Shown here in pieces: positions 3,033 through 47,941 of a stretch of DNA of 64,000 nt. How positions within the stretch are numbered: the stretch's first letter is position 1; every line of letters starts with the position of its first letter. Made by a program: the position numbers and the translations under genes. The notes beneath the pieces are model-generated. The model did no database searches and was not told the DNA's origin. It was given only the letters and a program-made list of their open reading frames with translations. Source of the DNA: Escherichia phage A4; the sequence record ON286972. One strand, written 5' to 3'.

Positions 3033-4417
<1,385 letters not shown>

Positions 4418-4421
<4 letters not shown>

Positions 4422-4861
4422 CAGTACTGCACCAATTAAAGAAAGTTAAACATCCGGTAGTTTATAATGATTGGCTACGCCAGAAGGAGATGGGGGACTT
4501 TTACTACCCAAAGTCTAAAGTACTGGCAACGTCAAAAACTATATACCTGAAATATAACGATGAAGATTGTTTGTGTATTCAAATGGGATTCCATCCTAAA
4601 GTTGGATTGTTTACATCAAATCAAACATTTTATAAATTTAGAATTCAAAAAGATACATTTAGTATTCACATTGAAAAGCATGACGTAGAAGATACAATAT
4701 ATCGTGTGGAAAGTGAGCCTTTGAATCTTGTTGGGATTCCGTACAATAATTTAGAAGAAATGTACTTTCAGCAGTTGACAATACAAGAAGACTTTGGTAT
4801 GATAGGACTTCAAGAGTTAGAGATGATTAAACAAATTCGTGATATCTACTTTAAGGAGTAA
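4418..4861 (+). CDS. hypothetical protein, EE-x-Y-F-Q family (EEMYFQQ)
   Basis: track ORF starts with TTG; ATG at 4418 overlaps upstream stop (ATGA). Confidence 0.55.
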
Positions 4862-4862
4862 T

Positions 4863-5006
4863 TATGCCAGTGCGTAACAGTACATCACGCTTTACACTTC
4901 AACAGAAAGCAGATCTTCTGAATATGGCTAATAAAGATTCTAATTTTTACTATCTAGTACTTGGTGGTTCAGTTGAAAAGATTGATCTACGCGAGTGTAT
5001 GAAATA
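4863..5006 (+). CDS. small hypothetical protein (about 47 aa)
   Basis: short ORF with AAGGAG SD, not in track (<60 aa); coordinates approximate. Confidence 0.4.
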
Positions 5007-5019
5007 ATAAGGGGACAAA

Positions 5020-5190
5020 ATGAGTCTGAGTGAATCCTGGAAACAGTTCAAAGAAGAGATTGGTTATCGTGGTGTATCGAGTGAACCAATCAATCGTACT
5101 GAAAGCATTAAGGCCAGTACTAACGGTACTACCTATGACCGATATGACCCACGTTACGGGTTACATGAAGAAGTCAAAAAAGAAGATTGA
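5020..5190 (+). CDS. small hypothetical protein (about 56 aa)
   Basis: short ORF with AAGGGG SD; preferred over overlapping track ORF 5030..5230; coordinates approximate. Confidence 0.35.
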   Translation: MSLSESWKQFKEEIGYRGVSSEPINRTESIKASTNGTTYDRYDPRYGLHEEVKKED

Positions 5191-5253
5191 CAATATATCG
5201 AGAGTGTGTGATAATACTCTCGTCTTTTAATTAAACAAAAAGGTAAAATAAAA

Positions 5254-5820
5254 ATGGCTGGATGTGAAAAGATTTGTGAATACAGTGATGAATATGTTGG
5301 ACATGAAATGTATCACCATAAACGCAATCATATTCAAGTACTATCTAAGCACAGAAAACATTTCCGTGGTAAAGAGGCAACTCTTTTTGTTTTTGAAAAT
5401 GGTTTGAAAGAAGTTTGGAAATCAGGTGGTCAATCCGACGCATCATTGGAATGTGTGAATCCCAATCCAACAGAAGAGAATTGGGATAATTATGAATACT
5501 TCCGCATGTTTAAACGTACACCGTGGGGTAAATCCGAATGCTATGCTGTGTTTTTTGAAAACCTCGATGAATACAAAGCTGCACTGAAACAGTTCCAGCA
5601 ACGACTGGTAATGGAATATGCATATTACCTGTACGTACCAGATGTACCAGGTAAAGTCGGTGGTATGTATCTTAACTTCTCAACTGATCTGAGTGCAGTT
5701 AAGCGTCGTTTGCGTCGTCTGGTAGGAACACGCAATCTTAAAATCAAATACATGAAAGGTGATTTCTGCGATTTCTATAATGAACAGAAATTGATTAGAA
5801 TCGGTTCAGAGGACATGTAA
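5254..5820 (+). CDS. hypothetical protein
   Basis: ATG ORF with AAAGG SD. Confidence 0.6.
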   Translation: MAGCEKICEYSDEYVGHEMYHHKRNHIQVLSKHRKHFRGKEATLFVFENGLKEVWKSGGQSDASLECVNPNPTEENWDNYEYFRMFKRTPWGKSECYAVFFENLDEYKAALKQFQQRLVMEYAYYLYVPDVPGKVGGMYLNFSTDLSAVKRRLRRLVGTRNLKIKYMKGDFCDFYNEQKLIRIGSEDM

Positions 5821-6074
5821 TGGAACATCTTAAAACTATATGGGAACAAGTGAAAATCATCGTTGAAGGTGTTGTATTCGCTCTTATGACCTTAATCACA
5901 ATTGTAGTTGCTTTGATTCCATCCATCATTTATCAATATAATGGTGGAACTAACACTGATATTGACTTAGCATTGCGTATATTAGGTTTTGTGATTTGGT
6001 TACTATTTGTTGTTTGGGTGATGAACCGCAAAAGTCCATATGAGCAAGATGAGAAATCGGATAATGAGTATTGA
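5820..6074 (+). CDS. small membrane protein
   Basis: ATG overlapping upstream stop (TAATG); two hydrophobic segments. Confidence 0.55.
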   Translation: MEHLKTIWEQVKIIVEGVVFALMTLITIVVALIPSIIYQYNGGTNTDIDLALRILGFVIWLLFVVWVMNRKSPYEQDEKSDNEY

Positions 6075-6858
6075 AAAGATATTAAAAGATAACTTAACAA
6101 AGTACTTGATGAATTGCGACCGTGATGTACGCCGTAAATTTAACGGGTACTTAAAACGTTATCCTTACATCATGTTTTGTCCTATTAAAATTAATAACGA
6201 GGAAGAACACGATTGTCTTCACATTGGATTCACAAATCGTGTACTGAAAAAAAGTGAATTGTCTGAATCGGACGTATGGATTGAAACAGATGCACATGAG
6301 ACTAATGTTTTCTATCTGTATACTCCATATGCAGAGATTGTACATAACATATGTGATGCTGTATTCATTAGTACTGATGAGTTTCCAAAACTTTATATAA
6401 AGCCAGCACCACTTAAAGTTGCTATCAATGCACCATCTGTCGGGGAGGATGTATTTGGTACAATACAGTACTGTGTAGAAGAACATTTGGATCGTGAGAT
6501 TTCAATTGAAATGGCAGACATGCTTGCTGATGCTGTATCTGAATGTACGGCCCTTGAAAGTTACCTTATATATGATAAATCGTATTATAATTTGAATAAC
6601 ATTGTTGAAGGTGAAATCACAGTATGTATCAAATACAACAGTGAAGTTATTGGGTTTGTTCATTGTAAAGGGCATGATTTGTACCGTAAAAACATATCAG
6701 TGGTTGATCTACAGAAATGGAATCAGGTGATGGATTTAATCATTGACAACAGCGGTGTAAATGATATACTCGTTAAACAATATAGAGTAATCAACCCTAA
6801 AGATGACTGTGATTTGTACTTCCCAGTACAAGGTGTAACTGACGAGGATAAGCGATGA
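6064..6858 (+). CDS. hypothetical protein
   Basis: track ORF 6040..6858; start placed at in-frame ATG 6064 (6040 also possible). Confidence 0.5.
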   Translation: MSIEKILKDNLTKYLMNCDRDVRRKFNGYLKRYPYIMFCPIKINNEEEHDCLHIGFTNRVLKKSELSESDVWIETDAHETNVFYLYTPYAEIVHNICDAVFISTDEFPKLYIKPAPLKVAINAPSVGEDVFGTIQYCVEEHLDREISIEMADMLADAVSECTALESYLIYDKSYYNLNNIVEGEITVCIKYNSEVIGFVHCKGHDLYRKNISVVDLQKWNQVMDLIIDNSGVNDILVKQYRVINPKDDCDLYFPVQGVTDEDKR

Positions 6859-37446: not shown

Positions 37447-37638
37447 ATGTTGATTTATCAATGTGATAACATTCGTGTTATACAGCATCCCTACTTACAA
37501 ATCTTTGATGTGCAGCAGTATATGGAAGGTGATGACCCAAGAACCTATGGTCGTAAGTATGATTACTTCACTGTAAAGCAGTGTCGTAACATCAAAGAAG
37601 TACGACAATTAGTTCAAGAACTTCAAAATAAAGGTTGA
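37447..37638 (+). CDS. hypothetical protein
   Basis: track ORF 37417..37638 (GTG) trimmed to ATG after GAGGA SD. Confidence 0.5.
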   Translation: MLIYQCDNIRVIQHPYLQIFDVQQYMEGDDPRTYGRKYDYFTVKQCRNIKEVRQLVQELQNKG

Positions 37639-37664
37639 CTTCGGTCAGCCTTTTTTGTTATAAT
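37633..37664 (+). terminator. terminator-promoter stem-loop cassette
   Basis: GGTTGAC-TTCG-GTCAGCC TTTTTTG TTATAATCATTTCATC. Confidence 0.65.
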
Positions 37665-41923: not shown

Positions 41924-41955
41924 GGTTGACTTCGGTCAGCCTTTTTTGCTATAAT
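41924..41955 (+). terminator. terminator-promoter stem-loop cassette
   Basis: GGTTGAC-TTCG-GTCAGCC TTTTTTG CTATAAT. Confidence 0.65.
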
Positions 41956-44388: not shown

Positions 44389-44422
44389 GGATTGACTTCA
44401 GTCAGCCCTTTTTTCTATAATC
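44389..44422 (+). terminator. terminator-promoter stem-loop cassette
   Basis: GGATTGAC-TTCA-GTCAGCCC TTTTTT CTATAATCATTTCATC. Confidence 0.6.
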
Positions 44423-44449: not shown

Positions 44450-44887
44450 ATGACACGCATTAACTTAGTACATGTTAAAGAACTTGCTGACCAACATCTG
44501 ATGGCTGAATATCGTGAACTTCCACGTGTGTTTGGTGCTGTACAAAAACATGTTCAAGCACGTAAGCGTGTACGTGATTTCAAAATTAACAGTACTTATC
44601 TGTTAGGTTCAGGTCATGTAACATTCTTCTACGACAAGTTACTATACTTACAGAAGCGTCATATTGATATTGTTAACGAATGTTTGCGTCGTGGTATGAA
44701 GATTCAAAACACTGAAGTAAACGACATTAGCGGCTTCCCTGCTGAGTTTTGTAATGACTACGTACCATCGGAGTCCGAGATTAAAACATCACGCGAGCGT
44801 TTGATTGAGAAGCTTCAGATGAAGCCTAAGTGGTATAAGTTTACTGATGTTGAGCTACCTATATATTATGTTGATATGATACAATGA
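44450..44887 (+). CDS. denV: pyrimidine-dimer DNA glycosylase (T4 endonuclease V homologue)
   Basis: N-terminus [31 protein letters not shown] closely matches T4 endonuclease V as I recall it; SD GAGAGG. Confidence 0.9.
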
Positions 44888-45111
44888 ATGATGAAGAATT
44901 CAAAAAATATGCGATTGCGAAGCTTGATTCATACAAGTCACGCGAAACGTATAAATTTAATCCTGATAAAACAAAAGCATCTATAAGATGGATGATTAAT
45001 TCACCCAAATATACATTTGACGAAAAATATTCATGGATAGTGCAATGTAGTGATTATGAGGATTTGGTATATAATATTAAACTGTGTTGGTATGAATACA
45101 ACAATAAATGA
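44884..45111 (+). CDS. hypothetical protein
   Basis: ATGA overlap with denV stop. Confidence 0.5.
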
Positions 45112-45116
45112 TATAA

Positions 45117-45150
45117 GGGGTTGACTTCGGTCAGCCCTTTTTGCTATAAT
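45117..45150 (+). terminator. terminator-promoter stem-loop cassette
   Basis: GGGGTTGAC-TTCG-GTCAGCCC TTTTTG CTATAATCATTTCATC. Confidence 0.65.
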
Positions 45151-45176
45151 CATTTCATCAAATTAAGAGGTGATAC

Positions 45177-45416
45177 ATGAAACTATCTTTTATACGTTTA
45201 GCAGAATTCTTCGGTACTGATATAATTACTTTACAACAAATTGCAGACAATACTTCATTAAGTACACAAGAAGTACTTGACTTAGATGTGATAGAGTGTG
45301 ATAATACTTCTATCGATTATAAAGAAGGTCTTGTCGAAAAAGATAAGATTCAGGCTAAGATTAATGGTGCTGGACGGGTTCAGTACTGGAAAGGAGTTTT
45401 AAGTCATGCCAGCTAA
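45177..45416 (+). CDS. hypothetical protein
   Basis: ATG ORF with AGAGG SD. Confidence 0.55.
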   Translation: MKLSFIRLAEFFGTDIITLQQIADNTSLSTQEVLDLDVIECDNTSIDYKEGLVEKDKIQAKINGAGRVQYWKGVLSHAS

Positions 45417-47103
45417 ATTAACCCCTAAACAAGCAAAAGAAAAATTCAACAAAAAAGTATTAGAACATAACGTTCCAATTGAAGCTGATTATAGTAAGTA
45501 TGAAAATGCCAAATTAAAAAACATCCAAGTAGTTTGCAATGATGTATTAAAACACAAATCAGGCATATCACAAATATATCTTATGGATCACGCAAACCTC
45601 ACACACCCATCCAAAAAATTTGGTTGTCCTGAATGTGAAGACTGGTATAATGGTCATGCTAAAAGTTTAGATATTTTAATTGTTAGGGAAAGAATTAATT
45701 CTTGGATTAGTACTTATGGCGGGATTATTGATACGGTTAGTGGTGAAGTTGAAGTTTATAAAAATAATTCATCCAAAATACCATATATTTGTAAAAATGG
45801 AACTAAAAAAACGCTTACTATTTCTTCACTTGGCGATGAAATCGGTTGTAATTGTTCTAAATGTAAAGCTGAATTAATATCAGAAATCGAAGATAACAAT
45901 GAATATACATCCATGACTACTGTTGATGATTGTGTTACAATTTCCCATTTTAAATTTGGGGATGATGTTGCATTCTCGTGGATTTCACCATTGGAAATGA
46001 AAAAACATGGTTACTGTCTTGCCGAAAAAATGAAAGAAAAAGCATTGTCGGTTGGTAAAAATATTATTGGATATGCAATATCATCTCTTAGTGAATGGAA
46101 AAATGAAAAAACTCCTGTAATAACCGAACACGAAGGAGTATTATATCGTATTTCCAAAGCATCATATTTGATCAATAATAATATAGTACATAGACCACAT
46201 TATACAAAAAATAATTTTTTATATTATTTTTACAAATGTTCACCTAACAATCAACTTATTACACCAATCCTAATACCTGATGATATTGGTACAAAAAAGA
46301 AAATTAAAGTATGTTATAAATCATGTGGGTGTGAATATGATATATCTGTGGACGTTATAATGAACAGAAATTTAAAAACTTGTGGAAACTGTAAAAATAT
46401 AGATACTAATAAATTTATAGAACAGTGCTTGGAGTTCACTTCAAGTGGAGATTATATCTATGATAGAGTAAACTATATAAATCAAAGTACACCTGTAACT
46501 ATAGTTCATAAAATTTACGGCGAATTCAAAAGTACACCACAAAATCACTTAATACATTTAAAAAACGGTTTGAAATATGATACAGCTAACTTTAAAATAA
46601 AAAATTTAACTCAATTTAAAATTAAAGCAAATGAAGTTCATAATAACTTATATAATTATGATAAAGTTGATTATGTAAATTCTTCAACGAAAGTATTAAT
46701 AACTCATCCAGTATATGGAGACTTTTGGCAAACTCCAGCAAGTCACCTTGGTGGGTGTGGTCATCCACTTGCGGCTGGTCATTCTCAGCAATATGCATAT
46801 ATTCATAATATTTTGGATGGTGTTTTATCTGTAGCATTGAAATATGGGATTGAAAAGCAGAAAGGTAAGAGGGTGATGCAGCAAAATAAAAAATCCATGT
46901 TTCAAGTTCAATCTCTGTATACTTATTTTTTTCCATCTGTATACGAATGTAAGCAAGCTGAAAAAGAATGTAAGAAACTATTTGGTAAAGGTGTTTTAAC
47001 TAAACAAGAAATGCCAGACGGGTATACTGAAACAACTACACCAAACAACATAGATAAAATTATTGCCATCTATGAAAAATGGGGTGGGGTGAAACAAAAC
47101 TAA
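45406..47103 (+). CDS. Cys-rich protein with tandem internal repeats (candidate zinc-binding/DNA-binding protein)
   Basis: 565-aa ORF; multiple C-x2-C pairs (CPECEDW, CNCSKCKAE, CGCEYD, CGNCKN); repeated Y-D-x-V-x-Y-x-N-x-S-T-x-V-x-I-x-H-x-x-Y-G-x-F module. Confidence 0.6.
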   Translation: MPAKLTPKQAKEKFNKKVLEHNVPIEADYSKYENAKLKNIQVVCNDVLKHKSGISQIYLMDHANLTHPSKKFGCPECEDWYNGHAKSLDILIVRERINSWISTYGGIIDTVSGEVEVYKNNSSKIPYICKNGTKKTLTISSLGDEIGCNCSKCKAELISEIEDNNEYTSMTTVDDCVTISHFKFGDDVAFSWISPLEMKKHGYCLAEKMKEKALSVGKNIIGYAISSLSEWKNEKTPVITEHEGVLYRISKASYLINNNIVHRPHYTKNNFLYYFYKCSPNNQLITPILIPDDIGTKKKIKVCYKSCGCEYDISVDVIMNRNLKTCGNCKNIDTNKFIEQCLEFTSSGDYIYDRVNYINQSTPVTIVHKIYGEFKSTPQNHLIHLKNGLKYDTANFKIKNLTQFKIKANEVHNNLYNYDKVDYVNSSTKVLITHPVYGDFWQTPASHLGGCGHPLAAGHSQQYAYIHNILDGVLSVALKYGIEKQKGKRVMQQNKKSMFQVQSLYTYFFPSVYECKQAEKECKKLFGKGVLTKQEMPDGYTETTTPNNIDKIIAIYEKWGGVKQN

Positions 47104-47109
47104 ACAAAA

Positions 47110-47143
47110 GGGTTGACTTCGGTCAGCCCTTTTTGCTATAATT
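47110..47143 (+). terminator. terminator-promoter stem-loop cassette
   Basis: GGGTTGAC-TTCG-GTCAGCCC TTTTTG CTATAATTATTTCATC. Confidence 0.65.
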
Positions 47144-47170
47144 ATTTCATCAACTGATGAGGACAACGAA

Positions 47171-47941
47171 ATGACCAGAGAAGCACGCAGCATTCAAATT
47201 CAGAAAAACTTCAACTCCATGATGGTTGCTCTTGAGTGTTTGCTCGATGATAGCAGTACTGTAAAAAGTATGGTTGTCAGCGGTGCTCCTGGTGTTGGTA
47301 AGACTTACACCCTCTCTAAACGCCTCCAGAAAGCACATGACGCGGCAGAATGGAACGTAGCTACCATCAGTGGTAAAATGACCACTCTGGCTCTGTACGA
47401 AGTTCTGTACAAGAATCGTCATAGCACCAACGTGTTAGTACTGGATGATATGGACAGCATCTTTGATTCAGAAGACGGTATGAACCTGCTCAAAGCAGTA
47501 CTGGATAGTGGCAAGCGTACTGTTTCTTATATGACTAGCTCGAAGTATCTGAGCAGCAACGGTATCCCTAACAGCTTTGATTTTAATGGTCGCATCGTAT
47601 TCATTACTAACAAAGATTTAGCACTGAATGCTAAAGCTAAAACTAAAATGTCTGCTCACTATGCTGCTCTTATGTCTCGCTCTGTATACGTTGACTTACA
47701 GATCCAGACCAAAAGCGATATCATGATTCACATTGAGAACGTGATGAACCAGACCAACATTCTGGAATCTAAGGGTATTAACAGTAATGGTAGTAAAGCA
47801 ATCCTGAACTGGATGTTGAAGCACGAAGATTCACTTCGTTCACCTTCACTGCGTATGCCACTGTTGATTTCGGCAGTATATAACAACAACCCATACGATT
47901 GGGAAGAGCAATGTGAAAACTTGTTCCTGGAGAAAAATTAA
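47171..47941 (+). CDS. P-loop NTPase (AAA-like ATPase)
   Basis: Walker A GAPGVGKT, Walker B-like VLVLDDMD; ATG with GAGGA SD. Confidence 0.7.
   Translation: MTREARSIQIQKNFNSMMVALECLLDDSSTVKSMVVSGAPGVGKTYTLSKRLQKAHDAAEWNVATISGKMTTLALYEVLYKNRHSTNVLVLDDMDSIFDSEDGMNLLKAVLDSGKRTVSYMTSSKYLSSNGIPNSFDFNGRIVFITNKDLALNAKAKTKMSAHYAALMSRSVYVDLQIQTKSDIMIHIENVMNQTNILESKGINSNGSKAILNWMLKHEDSLRSPSLRMPLLISAVYNNNPYDWEEQCENLFLEKN

Follow-up and report, generated by a model that had tools for sequence, protein, structure and literature searches.

Described T5orf172 endonucleases and the 565-residue gene of Escherichia phage A4

Barth et al. 2023 (PMC10448857) reported on T5orf172 endonuclease genes from ICP1 and further phages. 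Their nuclease domain forms a subfamily of GIY-YIG whose profile is highly related to that of MUG113, and 87% of the genes carry CapR, DUF723 or a third DUF (given in that paper as "DUF4397" / "DUF4379"). A gene often has several finger copies, likened to "beads on a string", and its intragenic repeats can recombine to give in-frame indels, deletions among them. Close relatives may have such a gene, have it in frameshifted form or lack it. The CapR domain is a CxxC...CxC zinc-finger DNA-binding domain that has been traced to ICP1 proteins with a C-terminal T5orf172 domain (Netter et al. 2021, PMC8096241), and the T5orf172 domain of ICP1 ORF88, known as Odn, has been shown to cut DNA in vitro, an activity that depends on a Glu (Barth, Nguyen & Seed 2021, PMC8263062). 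Here we analyzed a gene of Escherichia phage A4 (sequence record ON286972) that encodes a protein of 565 residues at positions 45406..47103 (+) of a 64,000-nucleotide (nt) stretch of DNA, referred to below as the window. We consider it, with a probability of about 0.75, to be a free-standing homing-endonuclease-type gene of the T5orf172 family in an Asteriusvirus-like jumbo coliphage.

On every testable point, the 565-residue protein agrees with the description of Barth et al. 2023. The gene combines a nuclease domain of this family, finger units and a sporadic presence with variant, decayed or empty alleles. Like ICP1 gp130/tcgB, gp165 and gp174 (PMC10448857; PMC8096241), its product has an N-terminal array of the zinc-finger type followed by a C-terminal T5orf172-like domain, which is 38% identical to that of gp130/tcgB. 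The in-frame gain or loss of units by repeat recombination reported for gp174 has its parallel in two alleles of the A4 gene, of 565 and 628 residues, and the frameshifted, deleted and absent alleles of ICP1 endonuclease genes among close relatives are matched at the locus of the A4 gene, between denV and a P-loop gene. The protein differs from the ICP1 class in that its host is a ~350-kb Asteriusvirus-like coliphage, its array is long (~7 units), the C-H-C-C ligand set is missing from the two units that are best conserved and it falls below all Pfam thresholds.

Other described systems share one part of this architecture or another. Odn (Gp88), the origin-directed nuclease of ICP1, has the same nuclease fold class as residues 463-565 of the A4 protein, and its catalytic Arg and Glu have plausible counterparts in R489 and E542. 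However, Odn is an anti-satellite weapon with a RepA_N DNA-binding domain, whereas the A4 protein has a finger array and no satellite link. CapR, the capsid-operon repressor of the V. cholerae satellite PLE, contains the same kind of finger, whose CxxC...CxC motif is needed for DNA binding (PMC8096241), but, unlike the A4 protein, it is a single 15.5-kDa DNA-binding domain without a nuclease. The proteins P0018, P0019 and P0027 and the product of a 372-residue gene of phages JP4 and G17, which competes with the A4 gene for the same genomic site, have DUF723/DUF4379 units in common with the A4 protein, and have a Vsr-like/MTES_1575 or other PD-(D/E)xK/Vsr-type head in contrast to the GIY-YIG type found here. 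Finally, I-TevI and the T4 Seg proteins share the modular, beads-on-a-string design and are likewise encoded by free-standing intergenic genes of large virulent phages. In the A4 protein, however, the nuclease lies at the C terminus, the opposite order of domains, and the position of the "YIG" Tyr is an invariant Lys in its family (K-[FYLI]-G-I); it gives neither a Pfam GIY-YIG match nor an I-TevI profile alignment, and its DNA-binding modules are DUF723-type fingers, neither NUMOD nor helix-turn-helix.

The gene is an intact open reading frame (ORF) with an AAGGAG ribosome-binding site 9 nt 5' of its ATG, and encodes approximately seven finger units followed by the nuclease domain. Its region of the window is 94-97% identical to the Asteriusvirus jumbo coliphages slurp01, phAPEC6, PBECO4 and 121Q (~350 kb), and the G+C content of the 64,000-nt window is ~35%. 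A first description of this DNA, made from its letters alone (the original prediction), had reported the ORF together with four Cys clusters, all of which we located: CPEC at residues 74-77, CNCSKC at 148-153, CGC at 307-309 and CGNC at 326-329. It had also proposed DNA-binding repeats of the zinc-finger type from the world of homing endonucleases. This was borne out by a PHROGs search, in which the protein matched phrog_681 ("endonuclease") with an expectation value (E) of 7e-48, and by homologues that carry DUF723, DUF4379 and CapR. Searches of the Pfam, NCBIfam, PADLOC and Protein Data Bank (PDB) sequence collections with the whole protein and with seven segments of it gave noise only, such as DUF3903 and the CLK1 kinase (E ~0.5), and tblastn against the 64-kb window found no paralogue. 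A full-length AlphaFold model (predicted template modeling score [pTM], 0.41) was confident solely for residues 330-565; residues 1-330 had predicted local distance difference test (pLDDT) values of 26-75, and all that can be used of this part is its recurring secondary-structure pattern. Foldseek comparison of this model with the PDB returned nothing significant, an outcome expected for a flexible multidomain model with such a pTM.

A divergent T5orf172-like nuclease domain at the C terminus

The T5orf172-like nuclease domain comprises residues 463-565 (46792..47100, +), in a region (residues ~455-565) that is common to the homologues P0003, P0004, P0010 and P0029. A word-indexed homologue search with this domain alone returned one protein, and an exhaustive HMMER profile search collected 734 representative clusters at E ≤ 1e-3, 50 of them at E ≤ 1e-30. 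Among the best matches collected, the domain ended ≤ ~13 residues from the C terminus. Scanning of 140 full-length members of the domain family identified CapR in 115, DUF723 in 36, DUF4379 in 33, T5orf172 in 29 and MUG113 in 17. The T5orf172 and MUG113 matches persisted when isolated C-terminal domains were scanned (24/70, best E = 9e-6, and 13/70, best E = 7e-7, respectively), and therefore belong to the C-terminal domain. By tblastn, the domain was detected in 277 phage records, including ICP1 gp130/tcgB, which is annotated as a "putative homing endonuclease".

An AlphaFold model of the domain, generated from an alignment of 70 diverse domains, had a pLDDT of 90.4 and a beta-beta-alpha-beta-alpha core followed by a further helix. 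Foldseek comparison with viral models returned proteins named "CapR homology domain-containing", "Homing endonuclease", "GIY-YIG domain-containing" and "T5 Orf172", as well as Odn (E = 2e-4; template modeling [TM] score, 0.66). Across the 70 diverse domains, Y465, K479, G481, E519, G539 and E542 are invariant, R489 is found in at least 90% and D538 is near-invariant; all eight residues are present in the A4 protein. Y465 lies in strand 1 of the model ("aYI"), K479 and G481 in strand 2 ("K-x-G-I") and R489 at the start of helix 1, while G539 and E542 belong to the motif "DGYTET"; the sites of conserved residues include the loop before helix 3. Judged by sequence and predicted structure, residues 463-565 (~105 residues) are a divergent T5orf172/MUG113-type domain of the GIY-YIG superfamily, an assignment made at the level of fold and superfamily. 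Y465, K479, R489 and E542 would then be the counterparts of the Tyr, Tyr, Arg and Glu of the GIY-YIG core. The absence of GIY-YIG, noted in the original prediction, does not hold for a domain of this divergent type.

Other assignments were considered for this protein. A canonical GIY-YIG endonuclease with an N-terminal GIY...YIG motif was rejected on the basis of the missing Pfam GIY-YIG match, a nonsignificant I-TevI comparison, the C-terminal position of the domain and its K-x-G-I second motif, which leave the fold alone in common. An HNH endonuclease, as annotated in phage E9.1, was also rejected: Pfam HNH was not matched, and a match to phrog_559 ("HNH endonuclease") spans residues 176-384, which correspond to the finger array and include no catalytic domain. 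The original prediction had likened the repeats to NUMOD-type modules. A NUMOD-type zinc-ribbon DNA-binding repeat protein devoid of a nuclease domain would agree with the lack of a direct Pfam nuclease match, but neither the whole protein (E ≤ 1) nor any of its seven segments (E ≤ 10) matched NUMOD1, NUMOD3 or NUMOD4, and the C-terminal domain, which has the GIY-YIG fold, is part of a T5orf172/MUG113-related family. We therefore give this alternative almost no credence.

The clean repeats as cores of finger units without zinc ligands

When the ~31-residue repeat module was written as a regular expression, it matched the protein twice, at residues 352-382 (YDRVNYINQSTPVTIVHKIYGEFKSTPQNHL; nt 46459-46551, +) and 418-448 (YDKVDYVNSSTKVLITHPVYGDFWQTPASHL; nt 46657-46749, +). 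Over 33 residues, the two copies share 55% identity, and their local alignment scored 107, compared with a mean of 24.1 for shuffled sequences (standard deviation, 4.9; maximum, 53 in 2000 shuffles; z = 16.8). Self-BLASTP of the protein reported no internal repeat; the repeats were demonstrated by Smith-Waterman alignment with shuffles. The module is thus real, but of the three copies that had been claimed the window holds two in strict form, and three are found in the 628-residue allele of slurp01 and phAPEC6. The alternative "D/S" in the earlier pattern suggests that a degenerate N-terminal stretch (28-DYSKYENAKLKNIQVVC-44) was counted as the third copy; by sequence, this unit is no more than weakly related (hhalign E = 0.009).

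A database search yielded 28 homologues, nearly all of which align to the A4 protein just via residues ~330-460. Each matches this region 3-9 times, with a period of ~65 residues, and Pfam names the repeated units DUF723, DUF4379 ("probable treble clef zinc finger") or CapR homology domain. We built a profile hidden Markov model (HMM) from 52 homologue units (consensus, KLTTEEFIEKAKEIHGDKYDYSKVEYVNSSTKVKIICPEHGEFWQTPASHLSGQGCPKCAGKK), which matched residues 333-384 (E = 6.7e-21) and 400-459 (E = 8.2e-31). Since a model built from Pfam-named units matches both copies, the ~31-residue module can be assigned as the beta-hairpin core of a ~63-residue finger unit of the DUF723/DUF4379/CapR type. 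Unit 6 comprises residues 333-397 (46402..46596, +; hhalign probability, 99.2%; pLDDT ~90) and unit 7 residues 398-462 (46597..46791, +; pLDDT 94-97).

The metal-ligand positions read C-H-C-C in 220 of the 272 homologue units tallied. The corresponding positions are H368, Y371, none and none in unit 6 and H434, Y437, H453 and A456 in unit 7, so that both units, as read from these residues, have lost the canonical zinc site. Approximately 30 of the tallied units share this loss, mostly in relatives from similar phages (D-[FY]-[HNS]-R), and the ligand-less state is a minority of ~11-16%. AlphaFold nevertheless folds units 6 and 7 with a pLDDT of ~90-97. The loss of the zinc ligands is probably the reason why Pfam models miss the A4 protein; P0001 and P0003, which also have ligand-less units, likewise lack a DUF723 or CapR match in Pfam. 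Whereas the original prediction had treated the C-x2-C pairs and the clean repeats as separate features, they probably belong to one repeated unit, of which the clean copies are those without canonical ligands.

A more far-reaching proposal is that the ligand-less 63-residue units, with H/D-Y/F-H-R/A in place of C-H-C-C, represent a metal-independent derivative of the DUF723 finger that reads DNA in a modular manner, with a fixed number of base pairs per unit, such that the gain or loss of a unit (565 versus 628 residues) would predictably retarget the nuclease. If this were true, the ligand-less array would be a natural programmable DNA-recognition scaffold, in principle like zinc-finger or transcription activator-like effector (TALE) arrays. 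We regard this proposal as highly improbable.

Candidate finger units in the N-terminal region

On four lines of evidence, we read residues 1-330 as five more, and more divergent, copies of the ~63-residue finger unit. Our best reading is therefore approximately seven units in all. It is firm for units 6 and 7, while units 1, 2 and 5 have moderate support and units 3 and 4 weak support. The hmmalign program anchored the core strand in all seven segments, an iterated search seeded with residues 1-335 alone reached the DUF723 repeats of many homologues, and the full-length model shows a pattern of helix, beta-hairpin and short helix seven times, with low confidence in residues 1-330.

Unit 1 (residues 4-80; 45415..45645, +) has the candidate ligands C44, H50, C74 and C77. 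Residues 4-45 aligned to columns 1-38 of the unit profile in the expected register (hhalign E = 0.009), the GCPEC motif matched the profile separately and a low-confidence model shows a helix, a hairpin and a helix. Unit 2 (residues 88-158; 45667..45879, +), with the candidate ligands C129, C148/C150 and C153, aligned to 55/63 profile columns, again in the expected register (hhalign E = 4.9e-4). In the first round of a phmmer search, residues 113-172 aligned to segments of P0081 and P0063 assigned to DUF723 by Pfam. The first 160 residues of a distant homologue, P0134, match residues 1-160 of the A4 protein (E = 1.7e-26), and every candidate ligand of units 1 and 2 is conserved in it. P0134 is the sole distant homologue of these units, and a Pfam scan of it gave no match, so that their identity stays indirect.

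Unit 5 (residues 269-332; 46210..46401, +) has C303, C307(/C309), C326 and C329 as candidate ligands. The unit HMM placed residues 295-329 in register, weakly (E = 0.1), the local alignment of unit 5 to unit 6 gave z = 3.7 and the model shows a hairpin and a helix with a pLDDT of 61-73. Units 1, 2 and 5 keep four Cys/His residues at the expected positions and probably bind zinc. Units 3 (residues 159-205; C176, H181, H201 and C204) and 4 (residues 206-268; H242, H262 and H265) lie within 45880..46209 (+) and are degenerate; C204 is a Gly in slurp01. For both units, hmmalign provided core-strand anchors and the helix/hairpin pattern recurs at a pLDDT of <50, and unit 4 is weakly anchored by its alignment to the unit profile (hhalign E = 0.006). 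These two segments may be fingers.

Alleles, unit copy number and selection

The nearest public allele, that of vB_Eco_slurp01 and phAPEC6, encodes 628 residues. In slurp01 it contains a perfect 125-nt direct repeat with a spacing of 189 nt, of which the window has one copy (46613..46737, +), marking the junction of a copy-number difference of one unit (63 codons). From the perfect repeat we conclude that one unit was recently gained or lost by recombination of the repeats, which accounts for the difference between the two alleles. The allele of phage E9.1 is split by a frameshift inside the same repeat.

Relative to the slurp01 allele, the ratio of nonsynonymous to synonymous divergence (dN/dS) was 0.23 for the whole gene and 0.14 for the nuclease domain. 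A decaying pseudogene was thus rejected for the window allele, in which the ORF is intact and the invariant residues are present. Compared with slurp01 (locus 4203-6086), the finger array had a synonymous divergence (dS) of 0.05, whereas dS was 0.31 for the nuclease domain and 0.22-0.27 for the flanking genes; in the window (45406-47100) it is therefore ~6 times lower in the array than in the nuclease domain, with small substitution counts. Because dS is low in the array and high in the nuclease domain and flanks, these values suggest a recent exchange with a breakpoint inside the gene, near the repeats, although the small counts apply here as well.

Turnover of endonuclease genes between denV and the P-loop gene

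The 565-residue gene was found in just three other phage records, those of slurp01, phAPEC6 and E9.1. In PBECO4, the locus is occupied by a 379-residue gene with fingers and another T5orf172-like head; in JP4 and G17, by the 372-residue gene, whose head, read by eye, is Vsr/DUF559-like ("FEYDGSNH"); and in 121Q, by a 487-residue gene. WPEC5 has frameshifted fragments, and the locus of fEgEco12 is empty, with denV followed directly by one copy of the hairpin/promoter element described below and the P-loop gene. The locus is thus a hot spot for endonuclease genes: close relatives have at least four others there, unrelated or recombinant, along with two frameshifted remnants (WPEC5 and E9.1) and one empty site. 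Homology to the genomes with other occupants ends at the ATG (45408) and returns at the stop codon (47101); the boundaries of exchange are the start and stop codons, between a 79-residue ORF and the downstream element.

The 79-residue ORF (45177..45416, +; phrog_34150, no Pfam match) has a stop codon that overlaps the endonuclease start by 11 nt, and because of this overlap the two are probably cotranscribed. It precedes whichever endonuclease gene occupies the locus in eight related phages: with 96-99% conservation, it stands in front of three different endonuclease genes (slurp01, PBECO4 and JP4), and an ORF of the same size stands at the same position in the remaining occupied genomes. The overlap of stop and start is seen in the window and in five of the eight phages; in 121Q, the gene starts ~40 nt downstream. 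The ORF is missing from the empty allele. It could encode a partner or a regulator, or mark a site beside which endonucleases insert.

An upstream hairpin/promoter element (45115..45183, +), followed by the ribosome-binding site of the 79-residue ORF, consists of an intrinsic-terminator-like 8-bp GC-rich hairpin with a UUCG loop, a T-run and an overlapping, near-consensus sigma-70-like promoter. The promoter has TTGACT (-35) in the 5' arm of the hairpin, an 18-nt spacer and TG-TATAAT, an extended -10 (11/12 matches in the scan). The 32-nt core of the element, GGTTGACTTCGGTCAGCCCTTTTTGCTATAAT, is identical at 45119-45150 and 47111-47142, bracketing the pair of 79-residue ORF and endonuclease gene. 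The window contains five copies, compared with none expected, all on the + strand between gene cassettes; the others are at 37633-37664, 41924-41955 and 44390-44421, the last of these upstream of denV. The downstream copy (47104..47170, +) has an RNA folding energy of -17.6 kcal/mol (z = -5.5), and the record of phage G17 lists the hairpin as a terminator (ARNOLD). The downstream copy probably ends the endonuclease transcript and drives the P-loop gene. The element resembles promoter-stem-loop cassettes that Arbiol et al. (2010) reportedly proposed for modular shuffling in T4-type phages.

This arrangement raises the question of whether the presence and swapping of cassettes reflects ordinary homologous recombination between the hairpin/promoter elements and the 79-residue ORF, with an enzyme that may be inactive or cut elsewhere. 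The identical elements that bracket the cassette, the further copy at 44390, the single element retained between denV and the P-loop gene in fEgEco12, the swapping of alternative endonuclease genes between the 79-residue ORF and the downstream element and the likeness to the reported T4-type cassettes are all consistent with this. However, it does not account for why nearly all occupants of the site are endonuclease genes, or for the purifying selection on the nuclease domain. It is also compatible with homing, in that a double-strand break would stimulate exactly such recombination. As an explanation in its own right, we therefore consider it very unlikely.

A second alternative is that the gene is a domesticated relative of homing endonucleases, either a sequence-specific nuclease directed at competing phages or satellites (like Odn) or a DNA-binding regulator (like CapR of PLE, or I-TevI in its repressor activity), and no longer homes. 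Co-option is documented in the T5orf172/CapR family for CapR (PMC8096241) and Odn (PMC8263062), and according to Barth et al. 2023 (PMC10448857), bioinformatics alone cannot separate homing from domestication. The purifying selection on the gene, its strong early-type promoter and its operon with a conserved 79-residue ORF would also fit. The sporadic distribution of the gene and the turnover of the locus, with its other occupants, decayed copies and empty site, are in contrast those of the life cycle of a selfish element and unlike those of a fixed useful gene. Moreover, PADLOC gave no match for the 565-residue protein, and the intact nuclease residues argue against a pure regulator. Taken together, these observations make domestication unlikely.

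Proposed mode of action and significance

We favor the view that the protein acts as a homing endonuclease of the T5orf172 family. The approximately seven ~63-residue finger units, well supported for units 6 and 7 and putative for units 1-5, would lie like beads on a string and jointly read a long DNA site, with zinc probably bound in units 1, 2 and 5 and with units 6 and 7 predicted to fold without their ligands. The array would position the C-terminal nuclease domain, with a putative active site of Tyr465, Lys479, Arg489 and Glu542 that would cleave nearby DNA. In a mixed infection, a cut at the denV/P-loop locus of a relative without the gene, followed by repair from the carrier genome, would copy the gene in. 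Recombination between units alters their number, as the two alleles show, and thereby probably the specificity.

Several observations weigh against this reading. Pfam and NCBIfam scans of the 565-residue protein gave no T5orf172, GIY-YIG, DUF723 or CapR match. An hhalign comparison of the nuclease-domain profile with the catalytic domain of I-TevI, for which we used a sequence that agrees with 1MK0/1LN0, was not significant, and the profile matched no PDB sequence; for these two reasons, the equivalence of the catalytic residues is deduced indirectly. The statistics for units 1-5 are weak (E 5e-4 to 0.25), as is their model (pLDDT 26-75). For this protein, DNA cleavage, a target site and homing are predictions, and homing of its ICP1 relatives "has not been experimentally verified" (PMC10448857). 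In addition, the identical flanking hairpin/promoter repeats offer a nuclease-free route to presence and absence of the gene.

The value of these results lies mainly in annotation: the protein and its relatives are publicly labeled "hypothetical", "exonuclease ABC C subunit" or "HNH endonuclease", score below every Pfam threshold and can now be placed in the T5orf172 homing-endonuclease class. The denV/P-loop locus is a clean natural case of endonuclease-gene turnover, with at least five occupants, decayed copies and an empty site, and the 565- and 628-residue alleles illustrate a repeat-mediated change in finger number. Current understanding is unaltered, and the picture drawn by Barth et al. 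2023 for ICP1 and other phages is extended to jumbo coliphages. The finger variant without metal ligands, the polymorphism in unit copy number and the start-to-stop swapping of genes between conserved flanks are of minor interest.

Neighboring genes and mosaicism of the window

Upstream of the operon, denV (44450..44887) encodes a pyrimidine-dimer glycosylase. It is followed by an ORF of 75 residues (44884-45111, +) without a family match, at the position of which slurp01, PBECO4 and JP4 have an ORF of 119 residues, a further small cassette difference adjoining the endonuclease operon. Downstream, the endonuclease gene is adjoined by the gene for a P-loop/AAA-like protein of 256 residues (47171..47941, +; phrog_1250), which is kept directly downstream in all relatives. 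The P-loop protein gave weak PADLOC matches (PDC-S73 and GajB) that were restricted to the P-loop region. Similarity to slurp01 ends abruptly upstream of ~42875 and downstream of 47943, where the window encodes small hydrophobic proteins and slurp01 has a series of ~110-residue ORFs; the window is mosaic relative to slurp01, its closest relative.

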